Counted from the first letter of the stretch, positions 19,558-21,843 are shown. The stretch is DNA of 64,000 nucleotides from Rhodocyclaceae bacterium (GCA_030824275.1 JAVBXY010000016.1:115807-179806), one strand, 5' to 3'. Notes: generated by a model not told the origin, from the sequence alone. A program made the numbers and translations.

Positions 19558-21843
19558 ATGAGAAGGTTATCCACCATGACCAAGAACACCTCTTCCCTCC
19601 GGCATATCCGGTGGCGGCACCTGGCTGCAACGCTGATGCTGGTGCTAGGCACCGCAGCTAGCAGCGCCTTCGCACAGGAACCCGGCAACACGCTGGCGAC
19701 CAACCAGTCGCTCAGACCCAACCAGTTCCTGCTCTCGACCAACAAGACCTATCGGGCCCAGTTCTGGAGTGACGGCAACTTCACCGTGCATGCGGTCAAC
19801 GTCAATCCCTGGCGGGAAATCTGGTCCAGTCGCAGCAACAACGCCCGCGCGGCGAACGGCTCGATCAACATGCAGGGCGACGGCAATCTCTGTGTCAACG
19901 GGCCGTCCACAACAGGTGTCTGGTGCAACTACAGCAACTACGGCAATGGGGACTACTTTCTCATCCTCCGCGACTCCGGCACCCTCGAGGTTTACAAAGG
20001 CACGCCGGCCAAGTCCCGCGAGGCGCAACTGGTATGGACCTCCGCCCTCGACCCGGTTCACTACGCCAACAAATATGCCGACCTGAAGCAAGCCTTCGGC
20101 AGCAACGCCAAGGCGCTCATGGAACACTGGATCACCCACGGCCAATTTGAGGGGCGTTCGCCCAATCCGGGCGTCAGCGATGAAGGACGGCGCAACGCCC
20201 TCGGCGTCAACCTCGACACGCGCTTCTATGCCGACCGCTATGCAGACCTCAAGCAGGCTTTCGGCTATGACGCCCAGCGCCTGTACGAACACTGGATGAA
20301 CCATGGCCGTGCCGAAGGCCGTGTGCCGAGCAAATCCATCGATGAATTCCTCGCCCCGCCGCCCCGCTCCGCCCATCTGAGAGACGTGATGCGCGTCGGC
20401 GACTGGCTGCGCGAAGGCGAACGGATGGTCTCCCGCAGCGGTCGCTTTCGGCTCGACTTGCAGCCCGATGCCCAACTGGTGATCTACGAGGGCAACCCCA
20501 GCGATTCCAGCCGACGCTGGTTCCAGAATTCCCGTGGCTTCGAGGTCGGCGCGCAGTACAAGTATTTCACCACCCTGCAGGAGGACGGCCACTTGTGCAC
20601 CTACCGTGGTACGGGCCCGGCGGACAACAAGGGTTTCATCGGCTGTTCGCCCGCTGGCGCCGGCGGACCCAAGGGTCGCTATTTCGCAGCCTTGCAGGAC
20701 GACGGCAACCTGGCCATCTACAAGGGCGGCGGCCCGGCCGACAACCGGGGCTGGATCTGGGACCGGATCACGACTCGCCCCTCCTCGAAGAACATCTTCC
20801 AACAGGCCGCCGAATCCGTCGCCACCTGGACTGTCGGTGCCGCCAACACGGTAGCAAGAGGTACGACCAGCGCGGCCAACACGGTGGCCAGCGGCACCAC
20901 CCAGGCCGCCAACGACCTGGCGCGGGAAACCGTCAATGCCGCCAACACGGTCGCCCGCGAAACCACCAACGCCGCCAACGTCGTGGCGCGGGAGACGGTG
21001 AACACTGCCAACAAGGTCGCCAATACCACCGAGAAAGTTGCGGTGCAGGTGGGTCGCAAGGTGGAACAGGGCGGCAAGATCATCGGCACCGAGATCGTCA
21101 AGAACGGCGAGATCGTCGGCTATGCCGTCGCCAACTTCGCGGTGGACGCCTGGAACCTGCTCAAGGGAAATTGCGGCGTGATCGGCCGCAAGGTCTTCCC
21201 CATTGATGGCTACTTCCAGGGCGCCAAGCAGATCACGGGCGCGCTCGGCACTTATGGCGCCTTCAACAAGGACGCCAAGGCCGCCAGCGAAGCAGCCAAT
21301 GCCTGCTTCGAGCAGGTGCAGGACGGCTTCTACTGTTCCTTCCCGGCCGAAATCGAAAAGCTGGTCAGCCAGGCCGGCTCCATGCCCGGCAACCTGATCA
21401 ACCTCAGTACCCGCGTCTTCAACGAGGCCAAGTCGCAGGACTGCCTGATCGCGGGCGCCGCCACGGTCACGTTCGGCGCCATGGGTTTGCAGGTCTGCGC
21501 GCTGGGCAAAGTCGTCGTCAACGACGCGCAGAAAGCCTTTGCCTGCTTCTCGGCGGCAGAAGCCAAGGGCGTGATGAAGAAGTTTTTCAGGCCCGGCGCC
21601 ACCAGCCACGGCTTCCCGTCCAAGGAGGCATGCAACGGTATCGGCGAACTGGCCTTCACGGCGGCCGTGCAGGTGGCGACCAGCGGCCTGAGCAACGAGG
21701 CCAAGGCGGCGGTGAAGGCTGGCAAGAGCAACACCATCGCCATCGTCGCCGATCAGCTGCGCAGCGTGTACAAGGTCGCGGCGGCCGGCGCCAGGTACGA
21801 CGCCATCATGGGCGAACTGGAAGCCATGCCGGAGTGCAAGTAA
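19558..21843 (+). CDS. secreted multidomain protein with two bulb-type (monocot mannose-binding-like) lectin domains
   Basis: Signal peptide ..LVLGTAASSAFA|QEP. Start is the ATG at 19558 or 19576. QxDxNxVxY-type subdomain motifs (MQGDGNLCV, LRDSGTLEVY; LQPDAQLVIY, LQEDGHLCTY, LQDDGNLAIY). Followed by 11-aa repeats and a Cys-containing C-terminal region. Confidence 0.8.
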   Translation: MRRLSTMTKNTSSLRHIRWRHLAATLMLVLGTAASSAFAQEPGNTLATNQSLRPNQFLLSTNKTYRAQFWSDGNFTVHAVNVNPWREIWSSRSNNARAANGSINMQGDGNLCVNGPSTTGVWCNYSNYGNGDYFLILRDSGTLEVYKGTPAKSREAQLVWTSALDPVHYANKYADLKQAFGSNAKALMEHWITHGQFEGRSPNPGVSDEGRRNALGVNLDTRFYADRYADLKQAFGYDAQRLYEHWMNHGRAEGRVPSKSIDEFLAPPPRSAHLRDVMRVGDWLREGERMVSRSGRFRLDLQPDAQLVIYEGNPSDSSRRWFQNSRGFEVGAQYKYFTTLQEDGHLCTYRGTGPADNKGFIGCSPAGAGGPKGRYFAALQDDGNLAIYKGGGPADNRGWIWDRITTRPSSKNIFQQAAESVATWTVGAANTVARGTTSAANTVASGTTQAANDLARETVNAANTVARETTNAANVVARETVNTANKVANTTEKVAVQVGRKVEQGGKIIGTEIVKNGEIVGYAVANFAVDAWNLLKGNCGVIGRKVFPIDGYFQGAKQITGALGTYGAFNKDAKAASEAANACFEQVQDGFYCSFPAEIEKLVSQAGSMPGNLINLSTRVFNEAKSQDCLIAGAATVTFGAMGLQVCALGKVVVNDAQKAFACFSAAEAKGVMKKFFRPGATSHGFPSKEACNGIGELAFTAAVQVATSGLSNEAKAAVKAGKSNTIAIVADQLRSVYKVAAAGARYDAIMGELEAMPECK
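20839..21036 (+). repeat. six tandem 33-bp coding repeats (11-aa units AANTVARETTN)
   Basis: Units start at 20839, 20872, 20905, 20938, 20971 and 21004, all in frame within the lectin-protein gene. Confidence 0.9.

Follow-up and report, generated by a model that had tools for sequence, protein, structure and literature searches.

A secreted modular lectin with a cysteine-rich helical C-terminal domain in a Rhodocyclaceae bacterium: a candidate exported effector

We analysed a 64,000-nucleotide stretch of DNA from a Rhodocyclaceae bacterium (GCA_030824275.1, JAVBXY010000016.1:115807-179806; the whole stretch is called the window below) in which a gene on the + strand encodes a secreted, multi-module lectin of 755 residues; residue numbers throughout refer to this protein. 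The open reading frame (ORF) extends over 19456..21843, and the true start of the gene is probably the ATG at 19576, which has GAGAAGG 9 nt upstream and agrees with a 755-residue public gene call (P0001) that is 100% identical. An earlier, first-pass annotation of this DNA had placed the start at the upstream in-frame ATG at 19558, which has no Shine-Dalgarno sequence, and we replaced that start because only 19576 combines such a sequence with agreement with P0001. The G+C content at third codon positions (GC3) is 0.83, like that of the flanking genes, and the ratio of nonsynonymous to synonymous substitution rates (dN/dS) is 0.19 against a 79%-identical orthologue (P0002, on contig L093), so that this is a real gene under purifying selection. 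We rejected an antisense ORF of 744 residues (19645..21879, - strand) as a shadow ORF typical of DNA with 64% GC. The GC content of 2-kb windows around the gene (0.62-0.64) is inside the range across the whole window, and a phage or defence-island origin of the locus was dropped as PHROGs and PADLOC gave it no support.

The protein consists, in order, of a Sec signal, a first lectin domain (D1), two helical repeats, a second lectin domain (D2), a region of 11-residue repeats (hendecads) and a Cys-rich helical domain (Table 1). The observation of a modular secreted lectin gene in the first-pass annotation was thus borne out, although its start codon, the sizes of its repeats and the typing of a neighbouring kinase needed small corrections. 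The signal peptide, which that annotation had called clear, has a hydrophobic core at residues 15-33 that ends in AFA/Q and is helical in the AlphaFold2 model; the AxA-Q cleavage site is kept in the family consensus, and the signal region contains neither a lipobox Cys nor a Tat motif. As regards anchoring to the cell, Pfam and a scan of the protein sequence gave no lipobox, no PEP-CTERM and no beta-barrel.

D1 and D2 are genuine B-lectin folds, that is, folds of the monocot mannose-binding lectin (MMBL) type, also called beta-prism II. AlphaFold2 modelled both with a predicted local distance difference test score (pLDDT) above 90, and Foldseek matched them to single-domain plant bulb lectins (template modelling score 0.85-0.88, root-mean-square deviation 1.6-1.7 Å) and to pyocin L1 (E 4e-8); with both domains counted, pyocin L1, SCAfet and LlpA were matched. 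A profile of 55 family sequences run against PDB sequences gave E values of 2e-14 for pyocin L1/L2 and ~1e-11 for plant lectins. The window protein alone scored 25.5 bits against Pfam B_lectin (PF01453), below the gathering score of 32.4, which two homologues passed (P0043 with 34.5 bits and P0090 with 42.9). The model, Foldseek and the family profile therefore uphold the earlier proposal of two MMBL domains, and the six motifs quoted in its favour are all present, at residues 63, 99, 131, 295, 334 and 373.

The two domains differ in the state of their sugar sites. Those of D1 are degenerate (WxDxNxTxH, QxDxNxCxN and RxSxTxExY); the third is degenerate family-wide (R-D-x-G-x-L-E-x-Y), and the Gln of the first has additionally been lost in the window protein. 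C106 and C117 lie inside D1. The sites of D2 are near-canonical (Q296/D298/Q300/V302/Y304, Q335/D337/H339/C341/Y343 and Q374/D376/N378/A380/Y382) and their residues are kept in 50-55 of the 55 family sequences, with N/Q300, H/N339 and V/A380 as family alternatives; C341 and C357 are invariant. This conservation suggests a sugar-binding function for D2, as a prediction from the alignment.

The helical repeats between the lectin domains take the form LDxxxYAxxYADLKQAFGxxAxxLxEHWxxHGxxEGRxP. Two repeats of about 35 residues had been annotated here; the repeats hold up, and their cores are longer, at ~42 residues (158-199 and 213-254), with 24 of 42 positions identical by manual count. They are predicted to be helical with pLDDT above 90, and no Pfam model matches them. 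Repeats of this type, in the form YxxxYxDLKxAFGxxxxxLxxHWxxxGxxEGR and often in many copies, are found in numerous proteins of Lachnospiraceae and other Clostridia from gut and rumen metagenome-assembled genomes (MAGs; L030-L088).

After D2 come six clear AANTVARETxN hendecads at residues 422-487 (nt 20839-21036), the number first annotated, set in a register that extends beyond them. The strict 11-residue register spans residues ~411-520, with about ten units in all, and runs on into three short beta-hairpin units at residues 488-520. Tandem Repeats Finder (TRF) reported periods of 33 and 66 at 20839-21022, and the 33/66-nt repeat DNA is 71-80% self-similar. Hydrophobic positions follow an a/d/e/h pattern filled by Ala, Val and Thr, and the AlphaFold2 confidence of this region is low. 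The number of hendecads varies between homologues, and the length of this putative stalk probably changes through repeat expansion and contraction. An 11-residue periodicity is also a feature of type I antifreeze peptides; the profile search of PDB sequences gave no match that would support ice binding by these Ala/Thr/Asn-rich 11-mers. Many family members are supplied by environmental Burkholderiales MAGs (L011, L013-L018, L021, L022, L025 and L027), and the labels GFS_, OTE_ and VAR_ carried by family MAGs look like those of surveys of cold or glacier-fed streams.

The remaining ~250 residues, which the first-pass annotation described as Cys-containing and could not assign, form a real domain. 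Residues 521-755 are all-helical in the AlphaFold2 model, the region being about 235-260 residues long, and contain eight conserved Cys (533, 577, 587, 623, 641, 657, 686 and 754) that are all invariant in an alignment of 18 sequences (A2) and at least 90% conserved in one of 55 (A1). Searches of the domain against Pfam gave nothing below E 0.07, and residues 400-755 gave nothing significant in Pfam, NCBIfam, PHROGs or PADLOC. A widened profile of the Cys-helical family reached a best E of 1.3 against PDB sequences. Foldseek returned best E values of 0.27 in the PDB and 0.65 in the viral models of BFVD, although the query model is of medium confidence and a match may be missed. A known adhesin or enzyme family, which had been named as something that could account for this region, was searched for and not found, and we detected no similarity, in sequence or in fold, of the C-terminal domain to established pore formers or toxin enzymes such as colicin, ClyA, Cry domain I, saposin-like proteins and phospholipase A2. 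Several hits were set aside: weak ones to Apolipoprotein, GBD_Y3 and BofC_C in Pfam, and those to alpha-synuclein in the PDB profile search, arise by chance or from low complexity in the 11-mer or beta-hairpin motifs, and the ClyA pore, as a fold match, had an E of 1.6, which is not meaningful.

Table 1. Features of the lectin gene, its surroundings in the window and the related gene clusters
Feature	Coordinates	Strand	Basis
Secreted modular lectin gene, 755 residues	19576..21843	+	Shine-Dalgarno sequence, gene call P0001, GC3, dN/dS
Sec-type signal peptide, residues 1-33, cleavage AFA/QEP	19576..19674	+	Hydrophobicity scan, conserved AxA-Q
B-lectin domain D1, residues 34-156	19675..20043	+	Pfam, phmmer, profile, AlphaFold2, Foldseek, motifs
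Two helical repeats, residues 157-262	20044..20361	+	Sequence, AlphaFold2; Pfam negative
B-lectin domain D2, residues 263-400	20362..20775	+	Family consensus, AlphaFold2, Foldseek, motifs
11-residue periodic region, residues 401-520	20776..21135	+	TRF, periodicity, AlphaFold2
All-alpha Cys-rich domain, residues 521-755	21136..21840	+	Alignments, AlphaFold2, HMM searches
Divergent intergenic region, presumed promoters/regulator sites	19367..19575		Between response regulator and lectin gene
NarL/GerE-type response regulator, 231 residues	18671..19366	-	Pfam, identity to Rhodoferax regulator
Multi-pass sensor histidine kinase, 640 residues	16783..18705	-	Pfam HATPase_c, identity to L002 kinase
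uvrA, downstream boundary	22007..24865	+	Adjoins lectin stop
Signalling-gene neighbours	15069-16754; 24953-27295; 13456-14961	+; -; +	Domain content
Lectin/secretin/Tectonin clusters of relatives	L002:8001-15506; L004:8001-17686; L005:3443-10325; L008:5050-13216; L009:10001-20360

Of 1.84 billion representative proteins searched exhaustively with HMMER, only 52 have the Cys-helical domain. Its last ~190 residues define a wider domain family that recurs with other modules: Tachylectin (P0113 and P0131), ricin-B together with CDtoxinA-like beta-trefoils (P0123 and P0127), LamG, beta/gamma-crystallin and ricin-B (P0129), SH3 (P0110) and four B-lectin domains (P0090). Three members (P0111, P0112 and P0120) have little beyond a signal peptide, small Cys-knot repeats and the Cys-helical domain; in distant members the Cys-knot repeat takes the form CGxLNQRPCxIxERxPSCxxGLYE. 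The C-terminal region of P0127 is weakly like a Tectonin protein that is encoded next to several closer relatives, as described below (BLASTP E 2e-5). All wide members share an invariant seven-Cys scaffold, C-x(9)-G[FY]xC ... C ... C-x(15)-C ... C-xxG ... C, and Cys and Gly are the sole invariant residues of the wide alignment, with no conserved residues of catalytic type, which makes an enzymatic Cys-helical domain unlikely. A constant secreted module that is joined to interchangeable lectins is built as a targeted effector would be; to read the same architectures as an anchor whose passengers vary appears less likely. In P0002 (L093:1066-3636, compared with window positions 21800-22006) the chain runs past PECGG into an extra module of ~100 residues, while the window gene ends at PECK, so that the module is cleanly present in one and absent from the other; the module, for which Pfam has no match, is also present in P0033, P0036, P0037, P0041 and P0043.

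Relatives that cover most of the protein's length are few. There are ~58 of them, every one named hypothetical by its source, and the family is small, uncharacterised and at home in freshwater and soil Betaproteobacteria. A search of the 185,579 species representatives of GTDB returned 20 full-length loci, all betaproteobacterial (Rhodoferax, Duganella, Rugamonas, Methylotenera, and Burkholderiales or Betaproteobacteria MAGs), and among the genome representatives searched the family was seen only in Betaproteobacteria of the order Burkholderiales. The best match to the window protein in this set is 67% identical and comes from a Rhodoferax species; the closest relative of all is P0002, which is intact.

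The modules have evolved at very different rates. D1 is the least conserved, with a mean identity of 34% in the family against 52% for D2, and between the window protein and P0002 identity is 55% in D1, 89% in the C-terminal domain and 96% in the hendecads, with dN/dS of 0.25 in D1 and 0.07-0.10 in the C-terminal half. Furthermore, D1 can be replaced altogether: two extra helical repeats stand in its place in the Duganella-type (P0028) and Rhodoferax-paralogue (P0048) subfamilies, and an Ala-rich helix in the P0042 subfamily. Given that D1 is variable or replaced, the conserved core of the family consists of the helical repeats, D2, the hendecads and the Cys-helical domain. On these alignments the tandem MMBL arrangement is a trait of one subclade only and does not extend to the family as a whole.

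The gene neighbourhoods of the relatives offer a further clue as to what the protein may do. We surveyed neighbourhoods, with the help of tblastn, at 19 informative distinct loci, and at 13 of these the lectin gene lies beside a gene for an orphan secretin lipoprotein with tetratricopeptide repeats (TPR). A gene for a Tectonin beta-propeller protein is also present at 11 of the 13, the usual order being lectin, secretin, Tectonin. The secretin partner (~660-1010 residues) has a lipoprotein signal and N-terminal TPR with weak similarity to PilW; its Secretin domain scores 91-99 bits, yet falls under every curated subfamily cut-off. The Tectonin partner is 827-1928 residues long and has long, Cys-rich C-terminal extensions at some loci. 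No targeting domain shared by the lectin and its Tectonin or secretin partners was found, and no functionally linked genes of a type II secretion system (T2SS), type IV pilus (T4P) or type III secretion system (T3SS) were seen near the relatives' loci. A single gene for a T2SSE-family ATPase occurs ~7 kb from the lectin gene in L005; it adjoins Ala_racemase_N, P5CR and YggT genes, and we take it to belong to an ordinary pilT-yggS-proC-yggT arrangement. Our literature searches on a secretin/Tectonin/B-lectin system, or on orphan secretins, returned nothing relevant.

The window itself is arranged differently. uvrA starts 163 nt past the lectin gene, with no ORF between, and takes the place that the secretin and Tectonin genes have in most relatives; the statement in the first-pass annotation that no immunity-like ORF follows is therefore confirmed. 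P0002 has the same regulator/lectin/uvrA context and no secretin, and as that gene is intact, the secretin-less arrangement is shared and stable and not an artefact of assembly. In two Rhodoferax genomes a secretin-linked copy exists alongside a secretin-less paralogue (L010/L029 and L012/L028).

On the other side of the lectin gene, a two-component pair had been annotated as a divergent 7TMR-DISM kinase and NarL regulator. The regulator is indeed divergent, with the kinase behind it, as at the Rhodoferax locus, and is 64% identical to the regulator that adjoins the Rhodoferax orthologue. The 7TMR-DISM label rests on an orthologue: in the window kinase Pfam detected HATPase_c only, plus weak PelG/YhhN similarity in the membrane part, and a 7TMR-DISM_7TM match is on record for the L002 kinase, to which the window kinase is 53% identical. 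No promoters or regulator sites were identified in the intergenic region between regulator and lectin gene. Other signalling genes are close by: one for a methyl-accepting chemotaxis protein, one for a dCache-PAS-GAF-GGDEF diguanylate cyclase just past uvrA and one for a receiver-domain protein.

Across the relatives, a NarL-type regulator with a multi-pass kinase is about as frequent a neighbour as the secretin, and the pair is kept where the secretin is missing (in the window and at L018, L028 and L029; the short L093 contig has at least the regulator). This constancy would fit a scenario in which the lectin is a periplasmic or surface co-sensor that, on binding a glycan from outside or from the cell itself, signals to the adjoining kinase, much as periplasmic binding proteins do in some two-component systems, with no role as an exported effector. 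We consider such a scenario very improbable: known co-sensors are much smaller than this 755-residue multi-module protein with its stalk and conserved effector-like domain, the secretin operon found in most relatives implies that the protein crosses the outer membrane, and four loci (L008, L020, L021 and L023) have no two-component system at all.

We favor the possibility, with a probability of roughly 0.4, that the protein is an exported, lectin-targeted effector that is toxin-like in its action rather than a blocker of BamA. In such a scheme the adjoining kinase/regulator pair would turn the lectin gene on; the product would be exported by Sec, lose its signal peptide and have its 12 Cys oxidized in the periplasm. 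Secretin-linked relatives would then leave the cell through their dedicated secretin, while in this genome the exit may be a secretin encoded elsewhere or general type II secretion. Outside the cell, D2 would bind a glycan, with the fast-evolving D1 tuning target specificity, and the hendecad region would serve as a spacer or coiled-coil stalk. The Cys-helical domain would finally act on the glycan-bearing surface, most likely through non-enzymatic binding to a foreign cell or through perturbation of its membrane.

The alternative that has to be weighed most closely is that the protein is a lectin of the extracellular matrix or of adhesion, which would stay associated with the cell surface or with exopolysaccharide, with the Cys-helical domain as anchor or oligomeriser and the hendecads as a stalk; the lectin domains, joined in the relatives by the Tectonin protein, would cross-link glycans so that cells aggregate, form biofilms or attach to algae or particles. 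A comparable arrangement is found in Vibrio cholerae, whose matrix proteins RbmC and Bap1 have beta-prism lectins as well as a beta-propeller and exit via a secretin. In keeping with a matrix role, the operon partner of the relatives is a huge multi-propeller Tectonin, the small residues in the a/d/e/h pattern of the hendecads fit a coiled coil, the kinases that adjoin orthologues are of the 7TMR-DISM type, selection is strongly purifying and there is no immunity gene. Nevertheless, we think that this role is possible but on balance unlikely. The three proteins that consist of nearly nothing but Cys-knot repeats and the Cys-helical domain would be anchors without passengers, which makes little sense; D1 evolves fast, as do receptor-specificity modules in conflict; and the protein carries none of the anchors that were looked for in it.

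Several points weigh against the effector reading, and the matrix or adhesion role explains the same data almost as well. These are: (i) the model of the C-terminal domain is of medium confidence, with pLDDT of 55-89 in the full model and 64 when the domain is modelled alone; (ii) the hydrophobic stretch at residues 623-648, which might insert into a membrane, is polar in distant homologues, so that a colicin-like hydrophobic hairpin was rejected as a family trait; (iii) eight disulfide-forming Cys argue against a large unfolding of the domain; (iv) the Ala/Val/Thr face of the hendecads, with small residues in an a/d/e/h pattern, suits a coiled coil better than a lipid-binding helix; and (v) tblastn found no secretin or Tectonin homologues throughout the 64-kb window, and at the three loci of distant Cys-helical genes that were examined (L089, L090 and L092) no secretin adjoins the gene, so that secretin-dependent export is inferred from the closer relatives. 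Activity, target and localisation are predictions here.

If the effector reading is nonetheless extended to the whole domain family, the Cys-helical domain would be a new extracellular effector fold, which bacteria join to interchangeable lectins (B-lectin, ricin-B, tachylectin, Tectonin-like and LamG) so as to attack or manipulate glycan-bearing cells, and Burkholderiales would export their version through an undescribed, minimal, self-piloting TPR-secretin together with Tectonin and with no T2SS or T4P machine. We regard this combined proposal as doubtful. Even so, a conserved secreted domain without a known fold deserves attention when it is seen with five or more kinds of binding module, including four of lectin type; should it prove membrane-active or toxic, it would be a new type of effector. 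At the family level, what stands out is the linkage to an orphan TPR-secretin and Tectonin, with no functionally linked genes for a secretion ATPase or a pseudopilus; we found no description of it in the literature, and if this secretin does export the lectins by itself, this would bear on how secretins function without a piston. The cultured Rhodoferax saidenbachensis has both a secretin-linked copy and a secretin-less paralogue, and genetics should be feasible there.

Among known systems, the first-pass annotation had pointed to the lectin-like bacteriocins (Llps). They come from Pseudomonas, Burkholderia and Xanthomonas and include LlpA, LlpB and the L-type pyocins. Llps have one or two adjoining B-lectin domains in ~166-290 residues in total (PMC6240691). 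In LlpA, two adjoining domains form a rigid, strand-swapped tandem of about 250-290 residues (PMC6240691), with a short C-terminal extension whose free terminal peptide binds strand 1 of BamA by mimicry of a beta-signal (bioRxiv 10.64898/2026.09.25.754295). The C-domain of Llps binds O-antigen, loop 6 of BamA is bound as well and there is no immunity gene (PMC6240691; 10.64898/2026.09.25.754295). Killing through these two contacts is narrow in spectrum. An extended LlpA-type bacteriocin would accordingly be a protein that binds the O-antigen of related Burkholderiales and a surface loop of their BamA and kills by blocking the machinery for beta-barrel assembly (BAM), with the extra modules as accessories. 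The likenesses are real. Both domains have the MMBL fold, with pyocin L1/L2 and LlpA among the best PDB matches; a conserved, presumably sugar-competent C-terminal lectin domain follows a degenerate and variable N-terminal one, as in LlpA (PMC6240691); LlpAs of Burkholderia and Xanthomonas also carry Sec signals, and further lectin-like bacteriocin types with other domain organisations were anticipated in the same work (PMC6240691). The lack of an immunity gene is shared too, although it is not specific to that family.

Closer kinship is another matter. The NCBIfam model NF033557 (LLB_putidacin) has a cut-off of 275 bits, and the protein reaches one fifth of it, 56.8 bits spread over four short stretches. 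In phmmer searches garlic lectin reached 26.8 bits in one stretch and pyocin L1 26.8 bits split into 12.3 and 12.4, and with the family profile one-domain plant lectins scored ~45 bits and the two-domain pyocin L1 55.7. Domain for domain, pyocin L thus scores no higher than plant lectins, and this comparison revealed no specific kinship of the lectin domains with LlpA. In a word-indexed protein search, the nearest matches outside the family are lectin modules fused to CHAP, M23, GH25, amidase, pectate lyase and similar domains, on cell-wall hydrolases and other enzymes, and none of them is named a bacteriocin. In addition, D1 and D2 lie 106 residues apart, separated by the helical insert, which is not the rigid tandem of LlpA, and sister subfamilies do without D1. 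D2 is followed by about 355 residues, comprising the hendecads and the Cys-helical domain; the last of them read ELEAMPECK, in which the Cys is nearly invariant and the final residue is not aromatic; the C-terminus of the family, PEC[KNRD], belongs to a folded, Cys-terminated domain and is not a free BamA-binding peptide with a beta-signal-like sequence. Finally, LlpA genes have no counterpart of the secretin/Tectonin operon of the relatives. Of the suggested kinship with LlpA, membership of the lectin superfamily therefore stands, as do the extra modules beyond canonical LlpA, while model score, spacing, optional D1, C-terminus and operon speak against anything closer. On these comparisons we group the window protein with LlpA at the superfamily level and no closer, though it may be antibacterial by some other route, and of the readings considered we give an LlpA-type bacteriocin the least credence. 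Surveys that mine genomes for BAM-targeting lectin antibiotics should not count this family without assays.

Plant and fungal GNA-like lectins, among them the tandem lectin SCAfet, share with D1 and D2 the fold, the QxDxNxVxY motifs, an intradomain disulfide and most of the Trp core. They are stand-alone proteins of one or two domains, whereas the window protein is bacterial, secreted and multi-module, has lost the canonical sites of D1 and shows substitutions in D2, from N to Q in site 1 and, in site 2, from N to H plus V to C.

A looser analogy is with the Vibrio cholerae cytolysin, RbmC and Bap1, which likewise join a glycan-binding prism or propeller to a separate functional module and resemble the relatives described here in their link to a secretin. 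The differences are that we found nothing similar to their effector parts in sequence or fold, that their prism is of the beta-prism I type rather than type II, and that they use a complete T2SS whereas the secretin of the relatives is an orphan.

That secretin is itself best compared with the self-piloting or lipoprotein secretins and with the PilW(PilF)-PilQ pair, since it too has a Secretin domain, a lipoprotein signal and PilW-like TPR. It differs from PilW(PilF)-PilQ in that the pilotin-like TPR is fused to the secretin, it scores under the cut-offs for GspD, PilQ, MshL, SctC and HofQ, and, rather than being linked to genes for T2SS, T4P, T3SS or phage assembly, it always accompanies the lectin gene and, as counted above, with the Tectonin gene.

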